Virus record (IMG/VR): IMGVR_UViG_3300028805_000054 | Source of the DNA: an uncultured virus (IMG/VR IMGVR_UViG_3300028805_000054) | Taxonomy: Duplodnaviria; Heunggongvirae; Uroviricota; Caudoviricetes | Reading direction: 5' to 3' (one strand) | Length of the DNA: 64,000 nt | Part shown: positions 8,893 to 57,658 of the stretch, one piece after another | How the letters are laid out: each line of letters begins with the position of its first letter | How positions within the stretch are numbered: the stretch's first letter is position 1 | The notes under the pieces: model-generated | What the model saw: the letters and a program-made list of their open reading frames with translations, nothing else | The model's database searches: none | Told to the model about the DNA's origin: nothing | Position numbers and translations under genes: made by a program

Positions 8893-8894
8893 AG

Positions 8895-34656: not shown

Positions 34657-35670
34657 TTATTTTTTATCAAGTAGTTCAAATCCTGCTTTTTTATCCTTTG
34701 TCATAAGATCTTTAAGGACAAAATATTCTCCTAAATCAGATGCTTTAGCCGTTTTCTGATAATCCAACCTTTCGTATAGGTTTTTCAGTGTAATTTTAAT
34801 ATCAGATTTAGCATATCGGTTTCCAACCTTAAATAATCGATATATTTCATCCTTAACTTGATCTTCCTTCTGACTATTTCCACTAAGTTTTGTAATCTCC
34901 CGTTTAATTTCAGCTTCATTATATCTATGTGCCCGAATTCCATCAAAACCTAAAAAGTCATAATAATCCTTATATTTATCCGGAATTAAACTAAAAAATG
35001 CAACCAGTTCATCCTCTGTTAGCTTATCCTCGTCTTCACCAAGATTTACAATAGATTTAAGCTTAATTTCTTCATTCTTGAGATTATTAAACTCTATTGA
35101 AAGCTTTCTAATATTATTATCTATATTCTCTAAATTTGTCTTAGACTCTATATATTTCTTAACATCATCCTCTATTAATCTATATACGATACAAGCATTA
35201 CTAATCTGCTTTTTCGGACTATAACATTTTAAACTCTCAGTGATTTCTTCTCTTTTCAGTTGTTTATTAGATATATCCAATTCTTTATAATGTTCCTGAA
35301 GAATATAATCCACTAACCAGGGGCATACTGAATATCTTTTACTAGATTTTATAGTTAATGTAGAAAGTTTATTCATGAGTTTTTCTGTAGTATCATATGT
35401 ATCAAAGAAATCAATAACTTTAGGGCAATATTCTAGATATTCCCTGCCAAACAATATGCAATCTTTGAAATATTGCTTAAGTTTTGATTCATCATCTAAA
35501 GTAAAATCACCCTCATATAAATGCAACACTTCAACAGTTCTATGATATTGACCATAACCATATTTATTTCTGCTTTCTTTGAAATCTTTAGAATAACCGA
35601 TCTTTACCATATAACCTAACTTCCTATTCTCATCCATCTGAGGTAATAAAATAACATATAAGTTTGTCAT
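34657..35670 (-). CDS. GIY-YIG (T5orf172/MUG113-like) nuclease fused to the helicase-type C-terminal domain
   Basis: LYVI...VKIGYS.D...R...E..L...F; C-terminal EIYRLFKVGNRY...KTAKASDL. Confidence 0.7.
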   Translation of the reverse strand: MTNLYVILLPQMDENRKLGYMVKIGYSKDFKESRNKYGYGQYHRTVEVLHLYEGDFTLDDESKLKQYFKDCILFGREYLEYCPKVIDFFDTYDTTEKLMNKLSTLTIKSSKRYSVCPWLVDYILQEHYKELDISNKQLKREEITESLKCYSPKKQISNACIVYRLIEDDVKKYIESKTNLENIDNNIRKLSIEFNNLKNEEIKLKSIVNLGEDEDKLTEDELVAFFSLIPDKYKDYYDFLGFDGIRAHRYNEAEIKREITKLSGNSQKEDQVKDEIYRLFKVGNRYAKSDIKITLKNLYERLDYQKTAKASDLGEYFVLKDLMTKDKKAGFELLDKK

Positions 35671-35744
35671 AATACATTAAAATTTAAAATAAGAGAATAG
35701 TAATTATATTCTATTACGTTTATATAATCACTATCCTCTTTTGT

Positions 35745-37832
35745 TTATTGTTTTTCTAAGATTTCTACTCCATGTTTCTTATCTGAAGTATAAACCTTCT
35801 TTACCTTGAAATATTGTTCAAGATCTGATGCTTTCGCCGTTTTTTCATATTCAAGACGTTCATAAATCCCCTTTAAGGTTGATTTAATATCTTTATTGGT
35901 ATACCGATTGCCAATTTTGAATAATCGATATATTTCTTCCTTCAGCTGATCTTCTTTATGACTATTCCCACTAAGACTATCAAGTTTTCTTTTAACATAT
36001 GATTCCTGACATTTACAAGCTTTAATTCCATCAAATCCCAGAATATCATAGTACTCTTTATACTTACGTGGAATATAACTAAAGAAAAGGTCTAACTCAT
36101 CATTTGTTAGTTCCTCACCATCTTCTTTACAATCACCTAAAGCCACAATGAATCGAAGTTTAGAAACGACATCCTTTAGCTCCTTAAACTTATCTGCCAA
36201 CTCACAAATAGGCTTATTAATCTCTCCAGTAAGCCCTTTTGATTGAATTGTATTAATCACTGTAAAACGATCCGCATAATCTGTCTGTTGCATCTCAAAG
36301 GCTCTAATCTCTGAAACCTGCATTAGACGATTGAATACTGGGACCATATCTTTACCCATATGTTCATTAACAGCTACATAATCATCCTTATAGTGAAATG
36401 TTTTAGCCAACTTCTGATATGCCTCTGCTAAATTATGCTTATCCTCAAAAGATACAGAACTGTAAGATCTAAGAAGAGATATTGTTTTTCCCTCTTTCTC
36501 ATCCAACCTGGCTTTAAATTCTTCCCAGGTTGTTTTAAGATTAGCCCTTGTCGTTTTTACAAACATAGTAGCATGATTTTTCCAGGGATTTTCTTTAAGA
36601 CGCTGACGACCTAATATCTGCTCTAAGTCCATACTGATATCGACCGAAAGACATTCAATATTACTGTCACTAAAAATGAAAGTTCTAGCGCAATCCGAAT
36701 AGAAATCAGCACCTAAATAAACAGTGCGGGTACAGAAGGTAAACATTTTATGATCTTCTCCTCTTCTAGGTATTTTCCCTATAACAGGGCCTTTGAGCAA
36801 TTCAGGATCTTTAATTCCCTCCTGTTCAGCCTTCTTCTTAATTACATAGTTAAAGGCATCTCTTACTTGTTTTTCATTTTCAGTTCTCTTGGCACATAGA
36901 ATATTACACTGATCTATACTCAAGTTGTTTGTTGTAATAGCTTTGCAAATACCAGCTACTGAATTCAAAAAGAATACTGCCTCATCAGATTGAAAATTCC
37001 AGATCCTACCTACATCATCTTTTATATGAGCAATCTCAAAGTCTCCGGCCAAATAACTCTGTATAACCTTCGAGATACTAGCATTCAAGGACTTTGTTGT
37101 AAACTTAATATCAAGCTTAGGTTTTACAACCCTTCCAGGATCCATTGTTTTCCAGTCAAACTCATAATAGGGAAGATTACAGAATTCGGGGAGCATCTCT
37201 AAGTACTTATCTAGCATTGGAGTAGCTGATACAAAACACACTCTCTTAAGATCCCTAAGATTATTGACAAGTTCTAATTCAGCATCAGATTTAAATCTAG
37301 CATCAATAAAGATACTCTGAAATTCGTCTACTACAATTTGAAAATTTCTAATCTGACCTTTCAATGCCTCCTTAACATGCCTGAAAGAATCATAAGTAAC
37401 CATAATTTTAACTGGCTTACCCCAGACTCTACATTTTGCAACATGTTCAATCACCTTAAATTTTAGTTCCTCAATAGATTCCCTCTTTTTATCAGGATCT
37501 ACTTCTTTGTTTGACTTTCGATCCTCCCTATCCACATTGGTCTCATAATCCGTAATAACTTCCGTTTTATTCTCGGCATAGTAAATATTAGGGTCCATTA
37601 AATGTTGACCAAGCTTATTCTCTAAAAGGAATTTTCTTGGAGATATCAATACTAAATCCTGATCATTAGTAAGACAATACTCTGTATAGCCACATCCTGT
37701 AAGAACTTTGTTGACTATATGTGGAAAATCATAGTCCTCTAGATTATAACTATGTTCTTTTCCAAAATATTTTTCCCAATCCCCTAAATATTCAATTCCA
37801 TAGGGTACTACAATAGGTTTTTCTTTTTTCAT
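35745..37832 (-). CDS. SF2 helicase-like protein (possible origin-binding/replication protein), copy 1
   Basis: TGCGYT (atypical Walker A), SPR, TYDSF, VVDEFQ, SATP, FCTRTVYLGADF, QILGRQR. Confidence 0.8.
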   Translation of the reverse strand: MKKEKPIVVPYGIEYLGDWEKYFGKEHSYNLEDYDFPHIVNKVLTGCGYTEYCLTNDQDLVLISPRKFLLENKLGQHLMDPNIYYAENKTEVITDYETNVDREDRKSNKEVDPDKKRESIEELKFKVIEHVAKCRVWGKPVKIMVTYDSFRHVKEALKGQIRNFQIVVDEFQSIFIDARFKSDAELELVNNLRDLKRVCFVSATPMLDKYLEMLPEFCNLPYYEFDWKTMDPGRVVKPKLDIKFTTKSLNASISKVIQSYLAGDFEIAHIKDDVGRIWNFQSDEAVFFLNSVAGICKAITTNNLSIDQCNILCAKRTENEKQVRDAFNYVIKKKAEQEGIKDPELLKGPVIGKIPRRGEDHKMFTFCTRTVYLGADFYSDCARTFIFSDSNIECLSVDISMDLEQILGRQRLKENPWKNHATMFVKTTRANLKTTWEEFKARLDEKEGKTISLLRSYSSVSFEDKHNLAEAYQKLAKTFHYKDDYVAVNEHMGKDMVPVFNRLMQVSEIRAFEMQQTDYADRFTVINTIQSKGLTGEINKPICELADKFKELKDVVSKLRFIVALGDCKEDGEELTNDELDLFFSYIPRKYKEYYDILGFDGIKACKCQESYVKRKLDSLSGNSHKEDQLKEEIYRLFKIGNRYTNKDIKSTLKGIYERLEYEKTAKASDLEQYFKVKKVYTSDKKHGVEILEKQ

Positions 37833-37867
37833 ATAATATCATCAAATAACTGAGAGCCCTTAAACAG

Positions 37868-37940
37868 GTCTCTCGTAAAATCCACTGACGTGTATTTTAA
37901 AACCGTCAGCTCCTCTTTCTTATATTCACATTCATAAGGA
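37868..37940 (-). promoter_or_regulatory. Promoter core plus conserved 5'-leader hairpin of helicase cassette 1
   Basis: TCCTTATGAATG then GAGCTGACGGTTTTAAAATACACGTCAGTGGATTTTACGAGAGAC; conserved at 53798-53890. Confidence 0.7.
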
Positions 37941-38039
37941 ATTCGAGTCTTCTGAACGGAGTTTTTTGCATTTAAACTTCTAGTATGGAGCCATCCCCAA
38001 TAGGAATATAGTAAAATGGAAAAATTGCAAATCACTGTC

Positions 38040-38740
38040 TAGAAAATTAAGCCATATTCCCACACACTTTTCTTTCTTGCCTTCGGCGTAGTCTTTAGTG
38101 TGTATTAGTTCATGGCTTGAGGGAAAGACAGTGATAAGGAAAACCAGCCAGAAAGAGAGCGTTATGTGGGTGGGCAAAGTATAATAAAATCTCGCCTCCG
38201 GCAAAGAAGAACATACTTTGGGTGGCACATAACAAAAACGGTCTGGCTGGGAAATAATTCAACTAGAGAAGATATTATGTGCCACCCCAAACGTATTAGA
38301 TTTATTCCTTCGGAGAAAAGATGACCACGTTTGAACCCACCCACATAATGAAAATCCTAGTTGTCTTATCTTTCTGCCTTTCATAAGATCAAGCTATAAG
38401 AGAATACACAAGATGGCGTAAAGCCCTTGTGTGAATGGTCATAGCTTTTTCAAGATCAAGGCAGGAGTTATCCTTAAAGAGATTACAGATATATTCAGGT
38501 TTTCTTCAATTGAGAGTGAAACGAAAAATTGAAGAGAGATGAAGGGTCCAACATTTTTGTGATAGCAAAAATAGCGTAGCGGGTTGTGGCTCTGGGGAGG
38601 CTTCATCTCATCTTTTTACATTATGCGTAAGCGAATATAATGTGATAGCCTTTATGATAACAAGAGAGAACAAAAAGAAAGACCTCCTCGATTCACTACG
38701 TTCATCTCGGGGGGTCAGACTCTCAACTGGTCAAAAAAAG
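38040..38740. other. Highly structured non-coding region (candidate origin or ncRNA)
   Basis: Nested inverted repeats at 38133-38370; several TACGC/TACGT motifs; no credible ORF. Confidence 0.55.
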
Positions 38741-38772
38741 AGTGGGAATTTAATCTTCCACCCTAATTAACT

Positions 38773-39060
38773 TCAGACTTTCTCAATTGTAAGAAGTTTT
38801 TCAAGAGAACCTGCTACTGGAATATGTTGACAATTTTCAATCAATCCTTCTGCAGGAACTATATCTTCATCTAACTCTCTGCAAAAATCTGAAAAATCAA
38901 CGCCTTTTATACCCAACAATTTTTCTCTAGGATCAGGAAAATCCTCACAATTTTCGTTATACAGGCATCGATTACAAATTAATTCATCTATTCTAATCTC
39001 TGCCATAGGGATTGCCTCCATCTCAATTTCGATTCCTCTATAATTTATTGTTGTTTCCAT
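38773..39060 (-). CDS. Cys-rich small protein, paralog of 33410-33667
   Basis: Shared Cys pattern and FPDPR. Confidence 0.7.
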   Translation of the reverse strand: METTINYRGIEIEMEAIPMAEIRIDELICNRCLYNENCEDFPDPREKLLGIKGVDFSDFCRELDEDIVPAEGLIENCQHIPVAGSLEKLLTIEKV

Positions 39061-39349
39061 AATCCTTAACTTTTTCTAATAGATACATAATATTCTGATT
39101 TACTTTTTCATCGAACTTAACCTTCTTGAGTAGTTTTTCAATATCTACTTCATAATAAAAACTATTCAGCCTAGTAATAAATTTTACGTCAGGTCTCATT
39201 ACGGATACTGAAGCTTTATCCCCAAGTATAGATCCTGGAAAAGGAGATTTAACTTTAAGAATAATAGTCTCAAGTTGGATGAAATGATAAGTAAATCTCT
39301 CAAATTCATTTCCTTCTCTTTCTTTTGTAAAATAATAATAAATTTTCAT
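39038..39349 (-). CDS. Hypothetical protein, paralog of 32500-32823
   Basis: Shared IQLETIILKVKSP. Confidence 0.7.
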   Translation of the reverse strand: MKIYYYFTKEREGNEFERFTYHFIQLETIILKVKSPFPGSILGDKASVSVMRPDVKFITRLNSFYYEVDIEKLLKKVKFDEKVNQNIMYLLEKVKDYGNNNKL

Positions 39350-39379
39350 ATCATATATAAGGATTTTACATTTATGCTT

Positions 39380-39604
39380 TTAATATAATCTAAATCCAAC
39401 TTCTTCAATTCGTTTTTGTAGGTACCTGATTAAGAATTCTGCTTCATTTCTAGATGGACAGGTATGTGCAGATTCAGTTTTCTTAACAAACTCCACTCCA
39501 CTATAACCAACGCATCTATAATAGAAGATCTTAGATGTCCTTTTATTGCCACCTTTCACAGCCACTCTATATTTCTCATCACAGTAACAAGGAAACATTC
39601 TCAT
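39380..39604 (-). CDS. Hypothetical protein
   Basis: Overlap-coupled in operon. Confidence 0.55.
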   Translation of the reverse strand: MRMFPCYCDEKYRVAVKGGNKRTSKIFYYRCVGYSGVEFVKKTESAHTCPSRNEAEFLIRYLQKRIEEVGFRLY

Positions 39605-40395
39605 AATTTTCCTGCTACTAATATTTTTTGTGTTATGGTATTGAAAAGGAGTTCTTGTTTACCCGTTATCATATCGTGGGAGAGCCAAGTAATCATTATA
39701 ATCTGATCTCCTTCCATTGAGTAAACCCCATAACCGTTGAGTGTTTTAGTGATAGCGGTTAGGGAATTTAGGTTTAGGTAGTGTGATAGTTCTGAGTCCC
39801 CCGTGTTTGCTAGTTCTTTCAATCCTTCCCAAAGTTTCATCCTATCTTGTATCTCCAACTTCATTATTTCTTCTGGATATATAAATTGGCCTAGAAGTTC
39901 GGAAGAGAAACCTGATGAAACAAGGGAAGCACCGCCCAACAGATCTAAGACAACAGCTTCTTTTAGGTTTCCGGTGTATCCTCTATATCCTTTCCCACGT
40001 TTTTCAAATCTCTCCAAGTAATGTTCAGTAAAATGGATCTTGAATATATTATAGTTTTTCCCGTGATCCATTCCTTGTAAGAGCCATATTCGATCTGGGT
40101 TTTCGTCCTCCAGGTAATGAAAGCACATAAACATTGGACTTCCTTGGCTAAATTTTAGGATAGTGGTGAACAGGAACATTTTTAAGGAGGGGCATATTTT
40201 TGGGTTTACTCTTCCGAATATCCAAGGTAAGATCTCCGCTTGTTTCGCTTTCCTGCCTTCCTCCTCTATTTCCTTACTCCTGCCCGCTTGTTTCCCAATA
40301 TAGTATTGTTCTTTCTGCAGGATTACGCTCTCATATTTCTCTAGTAGTTTAAATATTTCTTCTCTTTCATTTTCCTGCCTTATATTCCCCATCAT
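39601..40395 (-). CDS. Hypothetical protein
   Basis: 264-aa coupled ORF; FTEHYLERF motif. Confidence 0.65.
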   Translation of the reverse strand: MMGNIRQENEREEIFKLLEKYESVILQKEQYYIGKQAGRSKEIEEEGRKAKQAEILPWIFGRVNPKICPSLKMFLFTTILKFSQGSPMFMCFHYLEDENPDRIWLLQGMDHGKNYNIFKIHFTEHYLERFEKRGKGYRGYTGNLKEAVVLDLLGGASLVSSGFSSELLGQFIYPEEIMKLEIQDRMKLWEGLKELANTGDSELSHYLNLNSLTAITKTLNGYGVYSMEGDQIIMITWLSHDMITGKQELLFNTITQKILVAGKL

Positions 40396-40987
40396 TTTTT
40401 ATAGCCTCTTCTTTTATCAATTCAAATGTTGCTTTACTGAATGGTTTATAAATGTCATAATCACTACCACAAGAAACGTCAACATATAGGTTTCCGTCTT
40501 TTCCTAACATAAACATTTCCTCTGCGCCTATATTCATTTCAGTTTGAGAGGTTAAGCACCATTTCAAGTATTTTTCTTCAGCGAATCTTCCTTTGGCGGT
40601 TTCTTGTAGCCATATATAATCCTGAGTGTGCCAAGTTCCATCATTATATTTTAAATATTTCTCATATAGGAATTCATTTGCATGATGATCAGCTTTATAG
40701 TACTTGTCATCATAGTCATCTCTTATCCCAACCACCTTAACTACTATACTTTTGTCCTCATTTATAAAGCAAGTCCCGATCAGTTTCTTATAATCTTCTT
40801 CCGTTGCTTCAAAATAAGTTTCTGTTCTTTCCTCAATATATTCTTCTATGCCCTTATCTGTTCCAATTGTATATGTAACTCCAATAGGTAAGTGTTCCAA
40901 GACATATTGAAGTGTTGATAGTTCCGTAATGGAGAGATCATCTATATGTTTATCCTCCCACTCTGCTAATAATTTTTCTATGTTCAT
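40367..40987 (-). CDS. Hypothetical acidic protein
   Basis: 206-aa coupled ORF. Confidence 0.65.
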   Translation of the reverse strand: MNIEKLLAEWEDKHIDDLSITELSTLQYVLEHLPIGVTYTIGTDKGIEEYIEERTETYFEATEEDYKKLIGTCFINEDKSIVVKVVGIRDDYDDKYYKADHHANEFLYEKYLKYNDGTWHTQDYIWLQETAKGRFAEEKYLKWCLTSQTEMNIGAEEMFMLGKDGNLYVDVSCGSDYDIYKPFSKATFELIKEEAIKNDGEYKAGK

Positions 40988-41205
40988 AATATACTAATTC
41001 TATGTGCGCTTTCTTTAATGTATGGAATAATCAGAGTCATTACGTGTTCTCCATATTTATTTTGGATTTGATTTAAGTCGTTGAGATCTTTTCGTAATAA
41101 ATATCCTTGTTTTTCGTATTCAGCATAATATCTGATCAGGTCCTTATTATCGGCAGAATGATTCCTAGCCCAAACCTGATAGAAAACATCAAATTCATTT
41201 TTCAT
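40984..41205 (-). CDS. Hypothetical protein
   Basis: 4-nt overlaps with both neighbours. Confidence 0.6.
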   Translation of the reverse strand: MKNEFDVFYQVWARNHSADNKDLIRYYAEYEKQGYLLRKDLNDLNQIQNKYGEHVMTLIIPYIKESAHRISIL

Positions 41206-41669
41206 AGATTTTCGCTCCTTTCCATCATTTTCCGTCTTGCTCGTTCTATAGCTTCAGTATCGGATTTTAAGCAGACTAATCCTCTTTGATGCCATACCTT
41301 GAAGCTTATTCCTTTATCTGTTCTCACTAATCTTTCTCGTGTTGTCCAGAAAATAGCAATACAAGGTTCCGTTACTCCATATACTTCTACCTCAAATTCT
41401 CCGTTAGCATGAATTTCGGTATGTTTATTATAGGAATCAACCTCTGCTTTATCTCCCGTTATGCTTTTCCATCTTAGTGTTTCTTTTCGGAGGTTGGGAA
41501 ATTCGGAGAGGTTATAGACAGTTGCTTTATCATATCCACACTTTCTTTCTAGTTCCCCATCCAAGTACCACCAGCTATTTCTATCAAGGTCTCCATTCTT
41601 TAGTTTTTCTTGGGTTACTATTTTATCATAATCTTTATCCCAATCACAAATCATTTTCAACTTTTTCAT
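41202..41669 (-). CDS. Hypothetical protein
   Basis: 155-aa first gene of operon. Confidence 0.65.
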   Translation of the reverse strand: MKKLKMICDWDKDYDKIVTQEKLKNGDLDRNSWWYLDGELERKCGYDKATVYNLSEFPNLRKETLRWKSITGDKAEVDSYNKHTEIHANGEFEVEVYGVTEPCIAIFWTTRERLVRTDKGISFKVWHQRGLVCLKSDTEAIERARRKMMERSENL

Positions 41670-41873
41670 ATATTAATAAGTCTTTCCGCCGTCTTATTCC
41701 TTCCGTGATATTTTTAAGGTTGGGGAGATCAGGCTTCGCAAAAATAAACAACCTTGAAATTTTACCAGCATGATTTTTACGGCCGTCTGAGATTATGCTG
41801 GAGAAGAGAAACGGAAGGAGAGATCACGGCGGAAAAAGAAGAGACAGGATTTTATTTCCCATCTCTTTTATTC

Positions 41874-42947: not shown

Positions 42948-43048
42948 TTATATATTCGTTAACTATTTTTCTCATTGTCTTGATTACTTCATCCTCCATA
43001 ATTCCGCATCGTCTGGCCAGGATAGGGATGATAGTACGAATTTCTTTT

Positions 43049-44306: not shown

Positions 44307-44532
44307 ATTTAGATCTCCTTTTGATTGGTTGGTAGGGTATAAAATAATTTCTTATAGTAGCAAAAGTTATATATCTCCGACCCAAAACAATCTTTTTCTT
44401 TTCTTCATGATTTACCAGCCACCATCTCCCATCTTCAAGTTTAACGAGTGGATAGAGACGGCCTTTTTTGAACTCTACTATGAAGGTGCCGTGTTTAAAT
44501 CTACAATCTACTTTACAAATTACTCCCTTCAC
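44284..44532 (-). CDS. Tandem beta-barrel family member (divergent)
   Basis: ICKVD...FKKGRLY. Confidence 0.55.
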   Translation of the reverse strand: MKGVICKVDCRFKHGTFIVEFKKGRLYPLVKLEDGRWWLVNHEEKKKIVLGRRYITFATIRNYFIPYQPIKRRSKYETWKKS

Positions 44533-45374
44533 TTTCGGAAATCAATTCTAAATCCTCTCTTTCCTTTTTGTCGGCAAGGGAGAATAACAAACCACTCCTC
44601 TAGGTCCTTTGCCTTTGGGTTTCTCTCCACTCCACATTCTCGATAAACCTTTTCCAATCTATCTTTAACTTCTTGAGCCCCTTCTAAAAGAAATTCCCCA
44701 AGATTAAATTCAGCATAGATTCTTTCTCTAAGGCTTGGTAATTCTGGTCCTAGTTGTTCTTTCTTCTTGAATTCTAATCTACTCCTCTCCATACCAGCCT
44801 CCCCGCTTGAATCTCCAAAAATCATAAGTTCAGTTTGGGTTGAGATGGGAAGTAGGTTAAAAACATTCATCCAATTTCCAGAACGTGCTACCTCTATTCT
44901 CCTATTTGATCCCGCTAACCATACCCTCTTCACTAAATCTTGATCAGCGCTAGGAAGTATCATGAAATCCTTGAAAAGATTAGTCTGAGTAATTCCGTAT
45001 GCATCCTCCAGTGAATTCCAAGTATCACATTCATAGAGGATCTCATAATTGTCTGAAACATCTACCCAATCTAATCCCATCATCTGTGCTATTCTCTTAG
45101 TTTCTCCAATCACCCGCTTATGTTCTTCTTGGGATGTTGGGATAGGTATGTAATTAGAGTATAAGATGTCGGGGAGGTAATCTAGAAGACTTAGTTTGTA
45201 CATTTCCCTTTTCTTTTCGAATAATGCACGAAACGGTCTCAATACTCCCCTCAACTTGTCATCGTGGGAAAGATCTGGGAAAGTATATAAGAGTTGTGTA
45301 TTTTCTAGGTCATACTCTGTTCTCTCCTGTTCAGTTAAGTACAAGAGTTTATCCTTCTGTATTATTCTCAGCAT
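44529..45374 (-). CDS. Protein with a divergent copy of the helicase C-terminal domain
   Basis: RIYAEFNLG...VKDRLEKVY...NPKAKDLEEWF...KRGFRI. Confidence 0.65.
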   Translation of the reverse strand: MLRIIQKDKLLYLTEQERTEYDLENTQLLYTFPDLSHDDKLRGVLRPFRALFEKKREMYKLSLLDYLPDILYSNYIPIPTSQEEHKRVIGETKRIAQMMGLDWVDVSDNYEILYECDTWNSLEDAYGITQTNLFKDFMILPSADQDLVKRVWLAGSNRRIEVARSGNWMNVFNLLPISTQTELMIFGDSSGEAGMERSRLEFKKKEQLGPELPSLRERIYAEFNLGEFLLEGAQEVKDRLEKVYRECGVERNPKAKDLEEWFVILPCRQKGKRGFRIDFRK

Positions 45375-49463: not shown

Positions 49464-49532
49464 GTATTCTAGTTAATTTTATATTAACGATTATATTCAT
49501 TACATCAATAAGGGTTTCACCTCCTTATATAA

Positions 49533-50036
49533 GTGAAGATAAAAGACGTTAGGTTAAAGACAAATGGAGAATATGTATGTCTAACTTTATGGCTTATGCT
49601 CCCAGACGTTTATACATTTTGGTGGGGACTGGGACAGGGAGATCGTGACTGGCTGGAACTCTGTTGGAAGGAAAAGAGACTAGAAGATATAGAAAAGTTT
49701 ATGGAAGGAACCAGGCTTAGTCTTTGTCGCGGGAGTATTAAGATCGGGGCAAGAGGGAGATTACCAAAGAAGAAATTTTCATGGACTAGATTTAAGAGGA
49801 GAACTTTTGGAATATGGACAGAACTTAATACTCCTAAACCTCCGATGAGAAATACCCGCGACGTTCTTATAAGCCGGATCACACGCTTCCTAACCCTTCT
49901 TGAGATACCTTCCAATATTATCATCCCAAACTTGAAAGATTATATTACACTCTATATACTAAAAAGAGATCATCAGCAACCCACGACTAACGATACCATC
50001 GGGTCGAGGGCATGTAAATGCCACTATGCTGATTAG
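49533..50036 (+). CDS. Hypothetical protein whose 3' end is replaced by the IscB element left end
   Basis: ORF reads into the element after ...ILKRD. Confidence 0.55.
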   Translation: MKIKDVRLKTNGEYVCLTLWLMLPDVYTFWWGLGQGDRDWLELCWKEKRLEDIEKFMEGTRLSLCRGSIKIGARGRLPKKKFSWTRFKRRTFGIWTELNTPKPPMRNTRDVLISRITRFLTLLEIPSNIIIPNLKDYITLYILKRDHQQPTTNDTIGSRACKCHYAD

Positions 50037-50330
50037 TCTAAGTGAAGTCTCTATGTGTCACGAGATGATAGAAAGAGCTGAACTACGTTATGTGTGAATG
50101 TAAGAATGTTATCTCGTATTTAACTTCTTATACAATAGGTACCTATGGATATTCTTCCAAGTCTGTAGCTCTACGATTTATGGTTAAAAGTTTCTGCTGG
50201 GTAGGAAACAGTGCTGTAAATAATAAACCACATAATAACATTGACGATGGGAGTACTACCTTTAAAGTTGTTGATCATAATAATATGATTAATAATAATA
50301 AAGTGTCTTATTGTTAAACAATTTTTAAAT
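49955..50330 (+). ncRNA. omegaRNA (HEARO-type) with guide derived from the 5' flank
   Basis: Typical blocks GATTAGTCTAAG, ACTACGTT, ATAGGTACC, CCAAGTCTGTAGCTCTACG, GTTAAAAG, ACAGTG, AACATTGACGATGGG. Confidence 0.8.
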
Positions 50331-51626
50331 TAAAATGAAAGTTTATGTATTAGATTGGAAAGGAAAACCAATTATGCCTACCTCTAGAGGAGGCAGAGTT
50401 AGGTGGCTTTTGAAAACAGGAAAAGCCAAAGTTGTGAGAACTATTCCTTTTACTATTCAATTATTGGAAGAGAATAGAAAATATTATACTCAAGAGATTA
50501 ATCTAGGTATAAAACCAGGATCTAAAGAATTAGGGATATCTGCTACTTCAGAAAAAGAAGAATTATTCTGTGCATCTGTAAAATTAAGAACAGATATAGT
50601 AAATCTTCTATCTACCAGAAGAGAGCAGAGGAGAACTAGACGGAGTAGACTTAGATATAGAAAGGCTAGGTTCTTAAATAGAGTTAAAACCAAAAAACCT
50701 GGTTGGATAGCTCCCTCTATTCAGAATAAGATACAATATCATATCAAGATAGTAGAATTTGTCAATAAAATTTTACCTATATCTAATATGATATTTGAGA
50801 TAGCTATCTTTGATATTCAGAAGATAAAAAATCCTAGTATTAGTGGAGCACAATATCAGAATGGACCACAGAAAGACTTTTGGAATGTACGTGAATATGT
50901 TTTACATAGAGATAATCACGTCTGTCAACATTGTAAAGGTAGGTCTGGTGATAAGATCTTAAATGTACATCATATTGTATCAAGAAAGACAGGAGGTAAT
51001 TCGCCAGGAAACCTGATTACTTTATGTAAGACTTGTCATAAGAACTATCATGAAGGTAAGATTAAGTTATCCATTAAAAAGAGTAGGTCTTATAAAGATT
51101 TAACATATCTTAATATAATGAGAGATAGATTATATAAAGAGTTATTCAAGAGATATGGATTTATCTATATTACCTATGGTTACCAAACTAAATGTGATCG
51201 TATATCTAAGGGTCTATTAAAGAGTATAGATACAGATGCTTATGTTATCAGTTCTGGTGATACTAATCCTTTATTAAGTGATACTATATATTGTATTAGT
51301 CAGGTTCGAAGACATAATAGACAAATACATAAGTTTAAAATTCTTAAGGATGGAAAGCTCAAAAAGAACCAAGCTTCTTATAAAGTCTTAGAATATCGTC
51401 TTAATGATGTAGTGAAGTATCAAGGAGAGAGGTATTATATAGGAGGCCGTAGGGAAAGAGGAGACTTTAATATTAGGTCATTAGAAGGAGATCGTAAGCT
51501 AGATATATCATATAAGAAGTTAAAATTTTTATATGAGCCTAGACGAATATTTATGTATATTGAAAGAAGGAATATTACTCCAATTCCTCCCACCTCTAAA
51601 TCAGTGGGTTCCCTTGGAGTGTAATC
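49972..51626 (+). mobile_element. Non-autonomous IS200/IS605-family IscB (OMEGA) element, no tnpA
   Basis: Left end ATCAGCAACCCACGACTAA; right end TTCCTCCCACCTCTAAATCAGTGGGTTCCCTT; omegaRNA plus iscB inside. Confidence 0.8.
50335..51624 (+). CDS. iscB: IscB RNA-guided nuclease; HNH intact, RuvC catalytic residues substituted
   Basis: PIMP (PLMP) N-terminus, RREQRRTRRSRLRYR bridge helix, CQHC..HHI..N..NLITLC..CH; RuvC-I reads LGIKPG instead of LGIDPG. Confidence 0.9.
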   Translation: MKVYVLDWKGKPIMPTSRGGRVRWLLKTGKAKVVRTIPFTIQLLEENRKYYTQEINLGIKPGSKELGISATSEKEELFCASVKLRTDIVNLLSTRREQRRTRRSRLRYRKARFLNRVKTKKPGWIAPSIQNKIQYHIKIVEFVNKILPISNMIFEIAIFDIQKIKNPSISGAQYQNGPQKDFWNVREYVLHRDNHVCQHCKGRSGDKILNVHHIVSRKTGGNSPGNLITLCKTCHKNYHEGKIKLSIKKSRSYKDLTYLNIMRDRLYKELFKRYGFIYITYGYQTKCDRISKGLLKSIDTDAYVISSGDTNPLLSDTIYCISQVRRHNRQIHKFKILKDGKLKKNQASYKVLEYRLNDVVKYQGERYYIGGRRERGDFNIRSLEGDRKLDISYKKLKFLYEPRRIFMYIERRNITPIPPTSKSVGSLGV

Positions 51627-51932
51627 ATGGTAAGAATATTCGGTGAGTCAGTGTTTGTTGGGGATTACGGACTGGCTATAAATGTGGAAACTGATCTTGG
51701 ACTTATCACAATTCTAACTACTTTCCCTAGACTTAATAAATGGATAGGAGTAAAATTGGTAGATACATTCTCAATTATGTCAGATGAAAAAATATATGGG
51801 ACAGGGGATACAGAGCTACATGTCAGAAATCTTCAAACTTTCTTACATCAAGTCATTATGAAAGTACAAACTTACGACTCGAAGACACAGGAGATCATAA
51901 AAAGATATAAGGAGGTTTATGCTGAAGATTGA
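51627..51932 (+). CDS. Small tandem-paralog protein
   Basis: NKWIGVKLV...LHVRNLQTF. Confidence 0.6.
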   Translation: MVRIFGESVFVGDYGLAINVETDLGLITILTTFPRLNKWIGVKLVDTFSIMSDEKIYGTGDTELHVRNLQTFLHQVIMKVQTYDSKTQEIIKRYKEVYAED

Positions 51933-52209
51933 TAAGGCGGGTTATAGATATCCAAACTTAGTATTATCCATAAACGATATAACCTTCTTACTCCTACTTA
52001 AATATGGGAGAGGAAAGAAATGGTTGAAGTGGAGAATGGTTTACTCGGTTTTTGCTTATCCTACTATAGAAAATGATGCTAAAGAAACTAAGCTCCCAAT
52101 CCGATCCTTAGAAAAATTTGTTATTAGCGTTCTCTCCAATTTTCCAACCAGATCAAATAATACAAACGAACCAGCCAGAGAATTTATTTGGAAATGGAGA
52201 CAAAAATAA
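51919..52209 (+). CDS. Small tandem-paralog protein
   Basis: KKWLKWRMV...LPIRSLEKF. Confidence 0.6.
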   Translation: MLKIDKAGYRYPNLVLSINDITFLLLLKYGRGKKWLKWRMVYSVFAYPTIENDAKETKLPIRSLEKFVISVLSNFPTRSNNTNEPAREFIWKWRQK

Positions 52210-52520
52210 ATCAGGTATATTGGTATAGGATTGGAATCGATGGTAATGGTAAACTAAGAATTAAAGTTGGGAAAAATACATTCTTAAATATAATTGTTAA
52301 AAGAAAAGGTAATAAGTTTGTAGGGTGGAAATTAGTTAGAGGAATTTATCTTTCTACCTGCCAAACTATTCCTGACAGTGATCTTGTAATTCCAGTGAGA
52401 GATGTAAATAAATTTGTCGATGATGTATTTTCCAACTGTGAACTTGATTCTGTACATATAACCCAAAAAGGAAAAGAATGGGTAGAGAGATGGAGGAAAA
52501 AGAAAACTACAAAGGTTTAA
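52188..52520 (+). CDS. Small tandem-paralog protein
   Basis: NKFVGWKLV...IPVRDVNKF. Confidence 0.6.
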   Translation: MEMETKINQVYWYRIGIDGNGKLRIKVGKNTFLNIIVKRKGNKFVGWKLVRGIYLSTCQTIPDSDLVIPVRDVNKFVDDVFSNCELDSVHITQKGKEWVERWRKKKTTKV

Positions 52521-52585
52521 TCCAATGTAGTCTCTTTTTTTTTTGTGTTATCTTAGTATTCGGAGTTTTAAACAAGAATACGAAA

Positions 52586-52987
52586 TTAAGATAACTTGGC
52601 TTGATGACTAGAGATTTTGGCCAGATAGACATAGCGATTCGTAGTGGTCCAAAAATCATCTATCAAATTCACTATACCACTCCAACACATATCCTCACAG
52701 TCTTCCTTAAGTCCTGATAAAGTTGCACGTACAGAACAAAGTAAAGATTCAAAGTCATCATCACTTGGCAAAACAGGGTTAAGGTCTCCAGGATATACGA
52801 AATCTAAGAGAGCAATAGAGTTTTCAGCAAGAGCATCTTCAAATTCGGCTATCTCTCCTGAATACTCGTCAATGATAATGTGAAATGAATGGCTGGGACT
52901 AGACCAATGTAATTCTTTCAATCTTGTCTTATATCCCTCAATCCGATTCAATACTTCTACTAATTTTTCTTTATTAAACATGATCAA
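52586..52987 (-). CDS. Ferritin/Dps-like four-helix protein
   Basis: LKELHW....FH..IDE...FEDALAE. Confidence 0.7.
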   Translation of the reverse strand: MIMFNKEKLVEVLNRIEGYKTRLKELHWSSPSHSFHIIIDEYSGEIAEFEDALAENSIALLDFVYPGDLNPVLPSDDDFESLLCSVRATLSGLKEDCEDMCWSGIVNLIDDFWTTTNRYVYLAKISSHQAKLS

Positions 52988-53123
52988 TCAATTTTTTAAC
53001 GTAATATCTTTAAACTCTCGATATTACTTAGAGCAGGTTCCATCCCGCTCTTTCCGTTTATAAGTCTTTGAGAGGTTCACAGCGGAGTTTTTATGGTGTA
53101 AGTTTTCAAATCCTTACTAATAT

Positions 53124-53378
53124 ATGAAAGAAAATGTGAAACTGGGAATAGCAATTGTAACGGCTGGATTGATTGGAGGTGTGGGATGGAAATATAGAAA
53201 GAAAATCGTGAAAGTGGTTGGTGAATTTTGTGGTGCCGTCCTAAAAGGTTATACTGAATATGAACTTGAAGATCCTTACTACTATACTCGAGTGGAAGGA
53301 CATTGGAGACTGGATCGACATGGAAATTTCACCTACGTCAGACCACATTACAGGAAAACATGGAAGAGGAGATATTAA
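53124..53378 (+). CDS. Small membrane-anchored basic protein
   Basis: TM segment plus VEGHWR..HGNFTYVRPHYR. Confidence 0.6.
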   Translation: MKENVKLGIAIVTAGLIGGVGWKYRKKIVKVVGEFCGAVLKGYTEYELEDPYYYTRVEGHWRLDRHGNFTYVRPHYRKTWKRRY

Positions 53379-53399
53379 AATCCCTCTTTTATTTTTGTC

Positions 53400-53760
53400 T
53401 TAGTTGAGAGCCTGAAGACCCTCAACATTGTTACCACTTTTATAAATAGCTATAACTGAAAGCTGAAACCAAAGGCTATAATAAAAGCTATAACAAGTGC
53501 CTATGCTTTTTACGTTACACAAAGCATTGTTCTGAGGTTAAGCCTTCCCGTGGCCACTCACCCGTTAACTGTAAATTACTCCCTCGTTACTGCGCAAGCT
53601 TGTAACTTAGTCATAATTTCAGCAAACGTCTTCGAACCCTTAACCTCTCAATTTCAATTACCCTACGCTAAAGCTTCGGGATTAAAATTGAAAGATTCCC
53701 TGGTTTATTATTTTGCCTTTTTTATAGAATAAATTCATTATAGTGATAAATATAATCTCT
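53400..53760. other. Hairpin-rich non-coding region upstream of helicase cassette 2
   Basis: GAGGTTAAG/CTTAACCTC, ATGCTTT/AAAGCAT and TTTCAATT/AATTGAAA stems with TACG/TGCG loops. Confidence 0.5.
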
Positions 53761-53797
53761 ACTAAAATGTGCAAAACTCTGCTGAGAAAGGCTGAGA

Positions 53798-53890
53798 TCC
53801 TTATGAATGAAAGGAGGATGATTCTCTTGTAAAGAGAGAGTAAAAAGAGCTGACGGTTTAAAATACGCGTTAGCGGATTTTGTGAGAGAC
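53798..53890 (+). promoter_or_regulatory. Promoter core plus conserved 5'-leader hairpin of helicase cassette 2
   Basis: TCCTTATGAATG and GAGCTGACGGTTTAAAATACGCGTTAGCGGATTTTGTGAGAGAC. Confidence 0.7.
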
Positions 53891-53944
53891 TGTGTTCGAA
53901 GAACCAGGCTTTCATTTGTTTCAACATATAAAATTATATTAACA

Positions 53945-56095
53945 ATGGAAAAACATAAAATTATTGTACCAGAAGGAGTAAGGTACATAGGAGAAGTAAA
54001 TCCTGAAACTGAAGAGAGATTATGGGATTATGAATTAAAGGATTATGACTTTCAACATATCCTAAACAAAAAATTGACAGGGTGTGGATATACAGAGTAT
54101 TGTTTAGGAAATAGACAACTCTTAATTCTGACTTCTCCAAGAAAATTCCTTTTAGATAATAAGTGGGATCAACACAAGGACGAATACAATATCTATTATG
54201 TGAGGAATGAATTAGAGACTTCTGTTGATTATGAACTTGACCTAACTAAGGATGATCTTAAGTCCATCAAGGAGAGAGCTGAGAAGACGGAAGCAGGTAA
54301 GAAGGAAACTGAAAAGAATCTTGATAAGTTGAAAACAGATCTTAGAGATGCTATTAGAGCCTGGGAAAAAGTTGATAATGATAAACCTTTCAAGATTCTG
54401 GTAACATATGATTCATTCCGTCATGTTAAGGATGCTCTGACACATTTCTATGAGGATGAAAATGATAGAGAGGGTCCAGAGAAAAACATCTTCCCGGCTT
54501 TTCAGGTAGTGGTCGATGAATTCCAAAGTATATTCATTGATTCACGCTTCAAGTCAGAGACTGAGATTGAGTTACTTGATCAGCTTAGAGGAGTGCAGAA
54601 GGTATGTTATGTATCAGCTACTCCCATGCTTGATAAGTACCTGGAGAAGTTAGATGAATTTAAAGACCTTCCTTATTATGAACTAGATTGGGAGACAAAG
54701 GAACCTGGGCGAGTAGTGAAGCCAAAGTTAGAAATTAGATTTGTAACGTCTTCTCTTAATCAGGCAGTTAATGGAATAATTCAAAGTTATCTTAATGGAA
54801 AATTTGATACTAGGATTGATCCTAATACAAATGAGTTTATTGAATCTAATGAAGCCGTTTTATTCTTAAATTCAGTATCTGGTATTTGTCAAGCTATCAG
54901 AACTAACAAACTTCATAGGGATCAATGTAATATCATTTGTGCTAAGTATACATCTAATGAATCAAAAGTTAGAGCAGCTTTCAATGATGTTCTAAAGAAA
55001 GAAGCAGAAGCGATTGGAGTTAAAAAACCTAAACTAATAGGAAGTTCAGAAAAAGTTATAGGTTCAATCCCAACTAAGGGCCAACCTCATAAAATGTTTA
55101 CTTTCTGTACTAGGACGGTTTATCTAGGTGCTGACTTTTATTCGAAATGTGCTCGTACTTTCATATTCAGCGATAGTAATATAGCATGTTTAGCAGTAGA
55201 TATTAGTATGGATCTCGAACAGATATTAGGGAGGCAGAGATTAGATGAAAATCCTTGGAAAAATTCTGCCATTATGTATGTCAAGTGTACTACTCTTAAA
55301 CATAAAACAACTAAAGAAGAATTTGAGGAGTTTATAAATGAGAAGTTAAAAAGATCCTCTATACTTCTATCTGGATATGATAAATGTGATGATGAGGAAA
55401 AGTTTGAAATTGCTAAAAAATACCAAAGTGACTCAAAAATCTCCCATTACAGAAGTGACTATGTAGCAGTAACGAGAATTATTAACCGGACAACAGGAAA
55501 AGTAGTTAAACTTCAACCTGTTTTAAATAAATTGGTTTTGATTACCGAGGAAAGAGCTTTTGAACTTCAGCAGGAAGATTATGCCGATAGATTCACTGTA
55601 TTTTCTTCTATACAAGCAGAAGGAATGGATAGTATTGAAGATGAAGTTGGTCAGAAGGTTGAAGAATTTGGTAAAATACGTTCTGTGATGGACAAGCTTC
55701 GATTTTTATTGAATTATTCTGATATTGCAAAGGCTGAAAATTTTGATAATTTTTTAGAGCTGATTCCAGGTAAATACAAAGACTATTATAAAATAGTTGG
55801 GCCAGAAATAATTAAAGCATGTGGATGTGATGAGAGTAAGATTAAAAAGAAATGGCAAGAAAAAGTATCTAATAGTGAAATAAACGACAATGTTGTTTCT
55901 GAGATCTATAAGATATTTATAGTTGGTCAAAGGTATTCAAAAGTCGATATAAAGAATAAATTAAAAATTCTTTATGAAAAAATGGGATATCAAAAGACAG
56001 CAAAAGCCACGGATCTTGAACTGTATTACATAATGAAGTCTGTGTACATAACCTCAGAAAAGAAGCATGGATATGAGTTGATTGGAAAACGATAA
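53945..56095 (+). CDS. SF2 helicase-like protein, copy 2
   Basis: Start re-called to MEKHKIIVP (aligns with MKKEKPIVVP of copy 1); same motif set. Confidence 0.8.
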   Translation: MEKHKIIVPEGVRYIGEVNPETEERLWDYELKDYDFQHILNKKLTGCGYTEYCLGNRQLLILTSPRKFLLDNKWDQHKDEYNIYYVRNELETSVDYELDLTKDDLKSIKERAEKTEAGKKETEKNLDKLKTDLRDAIRAWEKVDNDKPFKILVTYDSFRHVKDALTHFYEDENDREGPEKNIFPAFQVVVDEFQSIFIDSRFKSETEIELLDQLRGVQKVCYVSATPMLDKYLEKLDEFKDLPYYELDWETKEPGRVVKPKLEIRFVTSSLNQAVNGIIQSYLNGKFDTRIDPNTNEFIESNEAVLFLNSVSGICQAIRTNKLHRDQCNIICAKYTSNESKVRAAFNDVLKKEAEAIGVKKPKLIGSSEKVIGSIPTKGQPHKMFTFCTRTVYLGADFYSKCARTFIFSDSNIACLAVDISMDLEQILGRQRLDENPWKNSAIMYVKCTTLKHKTTKEEFEEFINEKLKRSSILLSGYDKCDDEEKFEIAKKYQSDSKISHYRSDYVAVTRIINRTTGKVVKLQPVLNKLVLITEERAFELQQEDYADRFTVFSSIQAEGMDSIEDEVGQKVEEFGKIRSVMDKLRFLLNYSDIAKAENFDNFLELIPGKYKDYYKIVGPEIIKACGCDESKIKKKWQEKVSNSEINDNVVSEIYKIFIVGQRYSKVDIKNKLKILYEKMGYQKTAKATDLELYYIMKSVYITSEKKHGYELIGKR

Positions 56096-56170
56096 ACAAA
56101 AGAGAATAGTGATTATATAAATGTAATAGAATATAGTTACTATTCTCTTATTTTAAAATTTAGATTAATT

Positions 56171-57658
56171 ATGGATTTAACAAGTTTTAATTATGAGAAA
56201 GAAGGTAAAGAATATATTTACCTAGTGATGGTAGAGTATAAGGATAAGACTCTATTAAAAGTTGGTTATACAAAGACTTTAGAAAACAGAATGGATACCT
56301 ATGAACTACATAATCCGGATTTTCAGTTATTGAAAATTAGAGAAGGTACCAGAGGATTAGAGGTTTATATGCATAAAAAGTTTGAAAAATATAGGTATCC
56401 AAAAAGAGAGGAATGGTTTTACTATAATGAGGAGATTGTTGAAGGGTTTGATACTCTAGAAGAGATGAACTTTTTAGATATTGGTAAACTTAAAAATAAA
56501 ATTATAAATCTATTAAAACCAAAATCTATAGAAGAACTTAAAAAGATTTATTATGAAAGATATCAAAAAGAGATAGAGGATGAAAATTTAAATAAAGAAG
56601 ATCTAGACTATACTATTACAAATGCATTTTCTTTTATTAACAAAAATATAAAAGACTTTATAGATGCTTTAGACTATTCAGGGATTCCATTAGAGATAAA
56701 CCCAGAGACTAGATATCAGGTTATAATACCAAATCCAATTTCTACAGTAGATATCAGCATAGACCTAGAGCAACTCCTAGGCAGACAGAGATTGATAGAA
56801 AATCCTTGGAAAGATTATGCTAAAGTATTTATTCGAACTTTATCTAAGAAAAATATTATAACTTCAGATAAATATTATGCGAAGTTAAATAGCAAAAAGA
56901 AAACTACAAATCAGCTTTTGGATACTTTTAAAGATGCTAAGTTTGAAAATAGAAAAGCTTTAGCTGAAACTTATCAAAGAGATGCTAAGGTTTCACATTA
57001 TAAGTATAATTATGTTTCTGTTACTGTAGTGAAGGATTGGGAAACAGGTGAAGTGAAGGATCTTATTCCAGAATTCAATAATCTAATGATGATCTCCGAC
57101 ATGAGAGCTTTTGAAGTTCAGCAAGTAGACTATAAAGATAGATTTACAGTATTTTCTGCAGTCAATCAAGGTGGAATTGAAGGGGCTACAATCAGATCCT
57201 GTGAAATGGTAGAGAAGTTTAACCATTTTGGGGATTCTACTGATAGATTAAAGTATTTAGCAGATATGAGTACTGATACTACATTAACTTCTCAAGATAT
57301 TTGTTCATTCTTAGAAATGATACCTAGTAAATATAGAGACTATTATGAGATTATAGGCCCTGAAAGAATTAAAGCTAACAAATATCGAGAATTAAATATT
57401 AAAAGAGAATTGATGAAAAATTCTTTAGGAGATGGTCCCGACGATAAAGTAATTTCAAGAATGGGCGATATGTTTAGAGTAGGTCATAAGTATTCAAAGT
57501 CTGGCATAAAGGAATCACTTAAGAAATTATATCAAGAGTTAGATTACAAGAAGACAGCAAAGGCAACGGATCTTGAGGTTATGTATGTTATGAAGGCTAT
57601 CAAACTACAGGAAGATGGTAAATGGGTAAATGGCTTTGAGATAATAGGTAAGCGTTAA
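56171..57658 (+). CDS. GIY-YIG (T5orf172/MUG113-like) nuclease fused to the helicase C-terminal half
   Basis: YIYLV...LKVGYT....R...YELHNP...LE..MH...EEWFYY; then VDISIDLEQLLGRQRL.ENPWK through KTAKATDLE. Confidence 0.75.
   Translation: MDLTSFNYEKEGKEYIYLVMVEYKDKTLLKVGYTKTLENRMDTYELHNPDFQLLKIREGTRGLEVYMHKKFEKYRYPKREEWFYYNEEIVEGFDTLEEMNFLDIGKLKNKIINLLKPKSIEELKKIYYERYQKEIEDENLNKEDLDYTITNAFSFINKNIKDFIDALDYSGIPLEINPETRYQVIIPNPISTVDISIDLEQLLGRQRLIENPWKDYAKVFIRTLSKKNIITSDKYYAKLNSKKKTTNQLLDTFKDAKFENRKALAETYQRDAKVSHYKYNYVSVTVVKDWETGEVKDLIPEFNNLMMISDMRAFEVQQVDYKDRFTVFSAVNQGGIEGATIRSCEMVEKFNHFGDSTDRLKYLADMSTDTTLTSQDICSFLEMIPSKYRDYYEIIGPERIKANKYRELNIKRELMKNSLGDGPDDKVISRMGDMFRVGHKYSKSGIKESLKKLYQELDYKKTAKATDLEVMYVMKAIKLQEDGKWVNGFEIIGKR

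Follow-up and report, generated by a model that had tools for sequence, protein, structure and literature searches.

The 64,000-nucleotide stretch of the uncultured Caudoviricetes virus record IMGVR_UViG_3300028805_000054 (IMG/VR; the window) carries two inverted cassettes in which a helicase-like gene, H1 or H2, is followed by a nuclease gene, N1 or N2, whose product ends in the C-terminal region of a helicase of the same family. Comparison with related loci makes it very probable that N1 and N2 are free-standing genes of the homing-endonuclease type (T5orf172, GIY-YIG superfamily) that invade the 3′ part of this multi-copy, helicase-like family of jumbo phages. The mobile unit would consist of a replacement helicase 3′ end, a terminator hairpin and a nuclease domain that lacks a stop codon of its own, and would enter one of two fixed sites, site A for the N2 type and site B for the N1 type. 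The host helicase would stay complete, with a foreign tail, and the resident tail would be displaced downstream to become the in-frame C-terminus of the nuclease. A nuclease would then resemble a helicase tail because it reads into the tail that formerly belonged to the helicase of that locus.

Both cassettes share the order promoter-like motif, hairpin leader, helicase-like gene, hairpin spacer and nuclease gene. The cassettes agree with a preliminary description of this DNA; their open reading frames (ORFs) and non-coding parts, with further features, are as follows:

37929-37940, minus strand: promoter-like motif TCCTTATGAATG of cassette 1 (exact match)
37833-37928, minus strand: 5′ leader of H1 with two hairpins (GCTGACGG...CGTCAG and GAGAGAC...GGCTCTC), aligned with the leader of cassette 2
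35745-37832, minus strand: H1, 695 aa, helicase-like (ORF, homologue alignment)
35671-35744, minus strand: cassette 1 spacer, 74 nt, hairpin and T-run (folding, alignment)
34657-35670, minus strand: N1, 337 aa (ORF)
35119-35670, minus strand: nuclease domain of N1, aa 1 to ~184 (hhalign)
34657-35118, minus strand: tail of N1, a helicase C-terminal region fused in frame (alignment, tree)
34624-34654, minus strand: terminator-like hairpin right after the N1 stop codon
53798-53809, plus strand: promoter-like motif TCCTTATGAATG of cassette 2 (exact match)
53810-53944, plus strand: 5′ leader of H2 with hairpins (alignment, folding)
53945-56095, plus strand: H2, helicase-like paralogue, 716 aa from the ATG at 53945 (homologue alignment)
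56096-56170, plus strand: cassette 2 spacer, 75 nt, hairpin and T-run (folding, alignment)
56171-57658, plus strand: N2, 495 aa (ORF)
56171-56743, plus strand: nuclease domain of N2, aa 1-191, T5orf172/MUG113 (Pfam)
56744-57658, plus strand: tail of N2, the helicase region from motif VI to the C-terminus, fused in frame (alignment, tree)

The H2 frame is open from a GTG at 53882 (53882-56095, plus strand), and alignment with homologues indicates that the true start is probably the ATG at 53945.

Alignments confirm that both nucleases end in the helicase C-terminal region, N2 from motif VI onward. The last ~165 residues of N1 match the H1 tail at 56% identity (39% to the other helicase), and N2, in its last ~305 residues, is 41% identical over 304 aa to the part of H2 that begins at motif VI (41.4% to H2 versus 39.8% to H1). 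The preliminary description had added that each nuclease matches its own neighbor best. Within the four window proteins this is so, clearly for N1 and marginally for N2, but it does not survive the addition of relatives: among 120 helicase homologues the N1 tail is closest to P0009 (70.7% by BLAST) and the 305-residue N2 tail to P0114 (64.5% over 304 aa).

We examined 160 related loci, 80 on viral and 80 on metagenome contigs, using the window domains to search their ORFs. Behind the helicase gene we found nothing, a short nuclease, a long nuclease, both in tandem, or broken pieces. The short form (~312-355 aa) joins a T5orf172-like domain to the last ~155 residues of a helicase, and the long form (~475-490 aa) has a tail that runs from motif VI onward. 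Presence of the nuclease gene is polymorphic, the gene being absent in 70 of the 135 loci that could be judged and present or fragmentary in 65, counts that include many near-copies and so do not represent independent events. Split or truncated copies occur at L006, L043, L050, L091 and L100, and a short-type and a long-type gene stand in tandem behind one helicase at L044, L046, L047 and L053 (~7018-9470 in each). These tandems, together with 14 N2-type proteins (within P0280-P0296) that end near site B, suggest that the nuclease tails are themselves targets for further insertion.

The geometry of insertion is visible in four pairs of related jumbo-phage loci, one member of each with and the other without a nuclease gene, whose downstream flanks are 94.6-99.1% identical. 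L046 and L019 are 98.4% identical upstream and 81.8% identical across the helicase and the 1.2 kb before it; positions 7567-12992 of L046 then match 6549-11974 of L019 at 98.4%, starting at the nuclease tail of the former and the helicase tail of the latter. Identity likewise steps from 90.4% to 99.1% between L070 and L027 and from 90.7% to 94.6% between L065 and L020, and L021 and L055 show the same pattern. Within each pair, nuclease tail and helicase tail of the other locus agree at 97-100%, the nuclease tail being only 44-92% identical (40-aa windows) to the tail of its own neighbor, and the helicase of the occupied locus is only 76-91% identical to that of the empty allele. The junction is precise and in frame, 14 codons past a conserved QQIDYKDRFTVF, and identity leaps there from 82-91% to 95-99%, placing a recombination boundary at this point. 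The other loci are thus uninterrupted versions of the position that is occupied in their partners. What was added in the partners combines a foreign helicase tail with a nuclease domain, and the addition moved the native tail downstream, where it is fused in frame to the nuclease.

Two insertion sites account for the two nuclease types. Site A, used by the N2 type, lies directly before the invariant VDISxDLEQxLGRQR of motif VI, and site B, used by the N1 type, lies 3-14 codons after DY(A/K)DRF(T/S)V. In H1, site A falls near 36648 and site B, after DYADRFTV, near 36248; site A of H2 falls near 55194. Features by which homing endonuclease genes are recognized were found together here: a nuclease family associated with such genes, presence and absence at the same site, and a conserved site with a recombination boundary.

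An immobile, one-off origin is also conceivable, in which a helicase gene was duplicated in tandem in situ and the 5′ part of the second copy was replaced by a nuclease domain. The nuclease tail is indeed a direct repeat of the helicase 3′ region, and the family is multi-copy, with at least three helicase-like paralogues per genome (three in one half-complete 184-kb record, and three helicase loci on each of several ~360-400-kb contigs). We nevertheless hold such an origin to be highly improbable: it fails on the identical junctions in many genomes, on the empty alleles with a precise common boundary, on the near-identical nuclease domains with unrelated tails, and on the sharp identity change exactly at the junction, and two full helicase genes in tandem were seen at 0 of the 160 loci. 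We separately considered and rejected an intron or intein; tblastn matches of ~3 kb consist of a helicase and the downstream nuclease tail joined together, with no insertion in the helicase.

Nuclease domain and tail are decoupled across loci. The L081 helicase is a 96% identical orthologue of H1, with DNA that matches the window at 91% identity from its leader to the end of the spacer, and the gene behind it, whose ORF continues past the contig end, joins an N2-type domain at motif VI to a tail of the H1 clade. In consecutive 30-aa windows, N2 and the L081 nuclease are 93, 86, 93, 93, 66, 70 and 73% identical along the nuclease domain versus 30, 40, 58, 60, 10, 27 and 53% along the tail. We found 22 further relatives of the N2-type domain at 64-85% identity. 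Five of them are full-length (489-494 aa), and their best-matching tails come from five different helicases (P0069, 91.6%; L099, 86.3%; P0062, 81.2%; P0041, 78.2%; H1, 66.4%), the same five tails being 38.5-47.3% identical to the tail of N2 itself. Another 14 are 312-333 aa long and end near site B, and the remaining three (422-429 aa) have tails distant from all sampled helicases. Copies of the N2-type domain, 64-93% identical, thus sit on the tails of at least five helicase lineages, and such like domains on unlike tails indicate that nuclease domain and tail have separate histories.

Phylogenetic analysis of the tails points the same way. With metagenome loci added, the N1 tail forms a clade with the P0009 helicase (76% identity) and the L081 nuclease tail (support 95), and the N2 tail with the helicases L113, L117, P0114 and L121 (support 99; L113 is 75% identical over the last 150 columns). 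In the same analysis H1 pairs with the L081 helicase and H2 with P0075. Clustering within cassettes, which the preliminary description had set as a test before any tree was made, is rejected by the approximately unbiased (AU) test for both H1+N1 (p 2e-5) and H2+N2 (p 4e-36). Clustering by protein type is also rejected (six nuclease tails as one clade, AU p 1.5e-47). In a 194-row tail tree, the 24 nuclease rows need 20 label changes versus a shuffled mean of 22.9, and in a 79-row tail tree HEL needs 17 changes and NS 14. In these trees the nuclease tails are scattered among the helicase tails of other loci. Moreover, synonymous divergence (dS) is 0.98 between the N1 tail and the L081 nuclease tail and 0.36 between the adjacent helicases, indicating that these nuclease tails and helicases were not simply co-inherited.

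These results bear directly on the two readings offered in the preliminary description, a co-evolving two-component system and a selfish replication or homing module. In the former, an origin helicase and a nickase would work as a pair, with the nuclease keeping a co-evolving partner domain. The H1 and N1 tails are each other's best match in the window (56%; sisters at support 98 in a tree without close relatives), and the two cassettes agree in the order of their parts and in their conserved leaders and spacer. A replication role is also made plausible by primase-type fusions in distant members of the helicase-like family: in five of the 18 scanned (P0225, P0226, P0245, P0259 and P0275; 937-967 aa) a BT4734-like_N domain stands behind the helicase-like part, and P0225 additionally gives a weak PriCT_1 match. 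Against such a pair, both within-cassette groupings are rejected by the AU test, about half of the helicase loci have no nuclease gene, one nuclease domain type occurs with at least five helicase lineages, the 96% identical H1 orthologue carries an N2-type rather than an N1-type nuclease, and nuclease tails are up to 100% identical to the helicase tail of the empty allele, not to that of the neighbor. We regard a co-functional pair as scarcely credible. The selfish, homing part of the earlier proposal is the one that the data support, through the presence/absence polymorphism in near-identical loci, the precise junctions, the recombination boundaries there and the occurrence of one nuclease domain on many different tails.

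The preliminary description had placed a GIY-YIG type nuclease behind each helicase, and domain searches agree, by Pfam for N2 and by hhalign for N1. N2 matches T5orf172 with 32.4 bits (cut-off 20) and MUG113 with 34.4 bits (cut-off 22.3), with E-values of 1e-7 and 3.5e-8, both above the curated cut-offs. N1 gave no Pfam match at E<=0.1; the profile of its N-terminal domain matches the N2-type profile (hhalign 96.6%, E 5e-10), and the N1-related protein of L097 matches MUG113 at E 5e-4. Residues aligned between N1 and N2 include KxGY (KIGY), an arginine (R34/R40) and two glutamates (E61/E64 and E77/E81); the Arg and Glu residues of GIY-YIG domains have a catalytic role. By this profile-profile match, N1 appears to be a divergent T5orf172/GIY-YIG-like relative. 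Of 20 downstream ORFs, 17 match T5orf172 or MUG113 at E<=0.01 and 11 attain the curated cut-off. Family searches found no other DNA-binding domain in N1 or N2.

The targeted genes belong to a large family. H1 and H2 are 52% identical over their full length, and at least 4970 homologues of H1 were found at E<=0.001 among 8000 candidates scored. The family forms 2325 clusters at 50% identity, all of them unnamed, metagenomic and on contigs of up to ~400 kb; P0011, an H1-type helicase, is 72% identical to H1 and may be a third paralogue of this genome that lies beyond the window. The preliminary description had called these proteins superfamily 2 (SF2) helicases. In its favor, the invariant motifs DEFQ, SATP, TRTVYLGADF and QILGRQR follow in SF2 order in the alignment; DEFQ resembles motif II, SAT motif III and QxxGRQR motif VI, and a motif resembling V is likewise present and invariant. 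Distant members also give weak matches: of the 18 scanned, two match DEAD (E 1.2e-5 with 25.5 bits, and E 1.5e-3) and one matches ResIII, all below cut-offs, and in the Atlas DEAD is annotated in 11% of one neighboring cluster. On the other side, Pfam, PHROGs, NCBIfam, PADLOC and PDB sequence or profile searches gave no name for H1 or H2, helicase Pfam models at E<=1 were matched by 0 of 25 close family members, and an Atlas search using the tail alone returned nothing. We consider the family to be helicase-like and probably replication-linked, and its SF2 label to be tentative.

The unusual Walker A sequence without lysine (TGCGYT) that had been pointed out in H1 and H2 proved to be a property of the family. 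Motif I reads TGCG[YF]TE, without Lys, in all 25 aligned members, and the same place reads TGCG[YFAMI]T[ES] in a wider family of ~270 members, in whose first 140 residues the canonical GxGK[ST] is absent. In H1 this replacement lies at aa 45-53 (~37674-37700), with a conserved Lys four residues upstream (ILNK). Judged by this motif, the family would be either a non-ATPase or a non-canonical ATPase.

The spacers between helicase and nuclease genes are as nearly identical as had been claimed, at ~92% over ~70 nt, and only these two copies occur in the window. Each folds into a long AT-rich hairpin followed by a T-run (-20.5 and -20.9 kcal/mol; z-scores -5.5 and -5.2), a structure that the GC-rich rule of our terminator scan overlooks. 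The same stem is present after the helicase stop codon of L082, an 82% identical orthologue of H1 without a nuclease gene, and behind the helicases of L081, L086, L088, L095, L097 and L120; in L097 it shows compensatory changes. A hairpin of some kind with a T-run also closes most of the helicase genes that lack a nuclease gene. These occurrences identify the spacer as the terminator of the helicase, carried along with the replacement tail. Cassette 2 and L081 are 82.9% identical over the 824 nt that run from the tail end of the helicase across the spacer into the N2 domain, and the flanks of this stretch are ~68% identical or not alignable; cassettes 1 and 2 are 85% identical over 112 nt at the same place. 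The short 3′ end and terminator thus travel with the nuclease gene, which accounts for their being better conserved than the proteins.

The leaders and promoter-like motifs have a different distribution. The GAGCTGACGG hairpin leader is found in both cassettes by leader alignment and is unique to them in the window, and the leaders fold with -23.9 kcal/mol (cassette 1, z-score -3.1) and -33.5 kcal/mol (cassette 2, z-score -3.2). No Rfam family matched in 33000-59000 apart from a HEARO RNA elsewhere in that region. The TCCTTATGAATG motif is exactly shared by the two cassettes, as had been described, but it is not cassette-specific: its general form, CCTTATNNATG, occurs 13 times in the window versus 0.8 expected, oriented along genes, at sites that include 19264, 33382, 33689, 34139, 39352 and 57661. 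In relatives, similar motifs stand upstream of the helicase paralogues, with hairpin leaders after them; among the paralogues of one genome these leaders show strong conservation. A longer repeat family, CCCACAAAA..TGTCACA..CCTTATAT, is present upstream of several genes (6453-6530, 11296-11373, 18748-18825 and 32232-32309). The CCTTATNNATG and CCCACAAAA/CCTTATAT repeats are probably phage promoters of two classes. A sigma-70 scan gave promoter-like sites at a level not above that of shuffled sequence.

We infer that the nuclease would cut alleles lacking the gene and that double-strand-break repair would copy the unit into them. Repeated homing, from phage to phage and from paralogue to paralogue, would spread the terminator and the final 45-125 nt of the tail as one piece, so that the two cassettes would agree much more closely in this short stretch than in the surrounding proteins.

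Several points weigh against this explanation. Homing is here deduced from comparative anatomy. The sampled loci include no recent empty allele of either window cassette, and the closest helicase tails are only 76% (N1) and 75% (N2) identical, so the window insertions would be old or their source lineages unsampled. The presence/absence pattern, in which near-copy loci again keep the counts from being independent events, could be due in part to loss, through recombination of one tail copy with the other, and not to gain. The foreign tract seen at high identity among the window cassettes and L081 covers only the last 45-125 nt and not the whole distance from site A or B to the helicase stop codon, so later recombination has to be assumed. 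Finally, in every intact case the nuclease ORF runs through the junction into the tail in one frame, uninterrupted by a stop codon, which holds for both sites and for several nuclease lineages, and the old N1 and N2 tails are still open, with a ratio of nonsynonymous to synonymous divergence (dN/dS) for the tails of 0.14-0.42. Such in-frame, intact tails fit a tail that is used, and are not needed if the tail is purely a scar of insertion.

Also worth weighing is a variant with the same selfish origin, in which the tail is a working part of the nuclease that binds DNA or docks on the helicase or replisome and is renewed with each homing event. Besides the consistently open and in-frame tails, the lack of any other detected DNA-binding domain in N1 and N2 would fit this variant, as would the discreteness of the last ~110 residues, which also occur on the unrelated protein P0125. 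A precedent exists in Odn, where a T5orf172 domain joined to a RepA_N-like domain cuts the RepA-bound origin (PMC8263062). On the other side, tail identity tracks the locus and not the nuclease lineage, so that specificity would shift with each insertion; 14 of the 22 N2-type relatives (312-333 aa) are without the terminal domain; tail-less 134-aa T5orf172 ORFs exist nearby; and dN/dS is blind to whether constraint acted before or after capture, in a helicase or in a nuclease context. Weighing these observations, we think a working tail unlikely, although by no means negligible.

P0125 itself (281 aa, 44529-45374, minus strand) resembles the end of the helicase tail in its last ~110 residues and is unrelated in its N-terminal part. 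The match is found with a hidden Markov model (32.5 bits) and in hhalign against A3 (92.8%, E 4e-7; aa 165-277 versus H1 577-691). The terminal tail module thus appears to exist beyond helicases and nucleases.

The preliminary description had recognized no described equivalent of the cassettes. One exists outside phages in the mitochondrial mobile endonuclease ORFs (mORFs), which carry a foreign copy of the C-terminus of a host gene, as in Glomus atp6, atp9, cox2 and nad3 (PMC3630166, which also cites the case of an atp6 mORF in Allomyces macrogynus). As described there, an endonuclease ORF (LAGLIDADG, or GIY-YIG in atp9) sits in the 3′ part of a conserved gene, the element keeps the host gene complete by supplying a replacement C-terminus and shifts the native one downstream, where it persists as a duplicate, and the native copy clusters with close relatives while the inserted copy clusters elsewhere. 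In our locus pairs the upstream copy is similarly foreign and the downstream copy native, and for the window the same arrangement is indicated indirectly by the nesting of the N1 and N2 tails among helicase tails of other loci. The N1 and N2 elements differ from mORFs in having a phage host and a multi-copy helicase-like target, so that homing between paralogues is possible, in the T5orf172 type of their nuclease, and in their two insertion sites and tandem arrays. Reading phase differs as well: the phage nuclease gene starts at an ATG of its own, beyond a stop codon and terminator hairpin, and its frame continues into the native tail downstream, whereas the mitochondrial mORF shares the frame of the gene that precedes it, and the native tail there is frequently untranscribed. 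By analogy, N1 and N2 elements appear to work like mORFs and are not members of that set.

Phage T5orf172 genes have been treated as homing endonuclease genes, in ICP1 and others (PMC10448857). That study describes the T5orf172/MUG113 domain, variable presence, frameshifted copies, domain swapping and positions in or near essential genes and at genetic-exchange boundaries, all of which recall the loci described here. The ICP1-type proteins differ in having their own CapR/zinc-finger or other DNA-binding domains, and a term search of that study found no case of a displaced host-gene end serving as the nuclease C-terminus. Odn of ICP1 is similar in combining a T5orf172 nuclease with a domain whose homologue is part of a replication protein (PMC8263062). 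There, the borrowed RepA_N domain occupies the N-terminus, originates from a hostile satellite and has been shown to set cutting specificity. In N1, N2 and their relatives, it is the geometry of insertion that brings in the shared part, from the adjacent gene, and this part varies by locus. A tail that varies with the locus while the nuclease domain stays constant argues against a fixed borrowed specificity. In the phage homing-endonuclease literature, a limited search found no phage case of this kind, which is not proof of absence.

The rest of the window looks like part of a large phage genome. Its ORFs include ClpP, an M42 peptidase, a muramidase, an amidase, a flap endonuclease and an Mre11/Rad50-like protein, and many others carry no family assignment. 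No tRNA genes were found in the window, and megablast of a 24-kb region gave no match to deposited phages. At 49972-51624 (plus strand), a flip point of gene orientation, a 429-aa ORF with RRXRR and HNH domains lies just downstream of a HEARO RNA (Rfam RF02033; 88.6 bits, gathering score 83), so this locus is, as judged from these matches, an IscB-like nuclease with a guide-type RNA inside a phage genome. A 576-aa ORF (4402-6132, minus strand) contains five repeats spaced by 204 nt with matches to the DUF723/DUF4379 treble-clef zinc fingers, and may be another mobile nuclease relative, with arrays like those reported on T5orf172 homing endonucleases. Paralogous segments that are 80% identical and unrelated to the cassettes occur at 16962-17261 versus 19333-19632 and at 15286-15381 versus 31013-31108.

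Homing of N1- and N2-type genes into the helicase 3′ part would be a phage case, sampled many times over, of a homing endonuclease gene bringing along a spare end for its interrupted host gene, a design previously known from fungal mitochondria. It would explain how non-homologous genes come to have a common domain, why a nuclease can seem to match its neighbor, and why a hairpin is conserved above the proteins on either side. For annotation, the cassettes serve as a warning that a domain common to neighboring genes need not imply interaction; here, the common domain marks how the nuclease gene inserted, not a partnership. If the tail is used by the nuclease, these proteins would be natural chimeras whose targeting part is swapped at each move. 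One further possibility, which we regard as speculative and rather doubtful, is that every homing event equips the stopless nuclease gene with the C-terminal domain of the resident helicase as a self-updating docking or competing module; if so, helicase 3′ ends and terminators would be reshuffled and homogenized across a paralogous replication-gene family, within and between jumbo phages. More broadly, insertion of this kind would give selfish genes a route to drive concerted evolution and mosaicism in a multi-copy, probably replication-linked jumbo-phage family.

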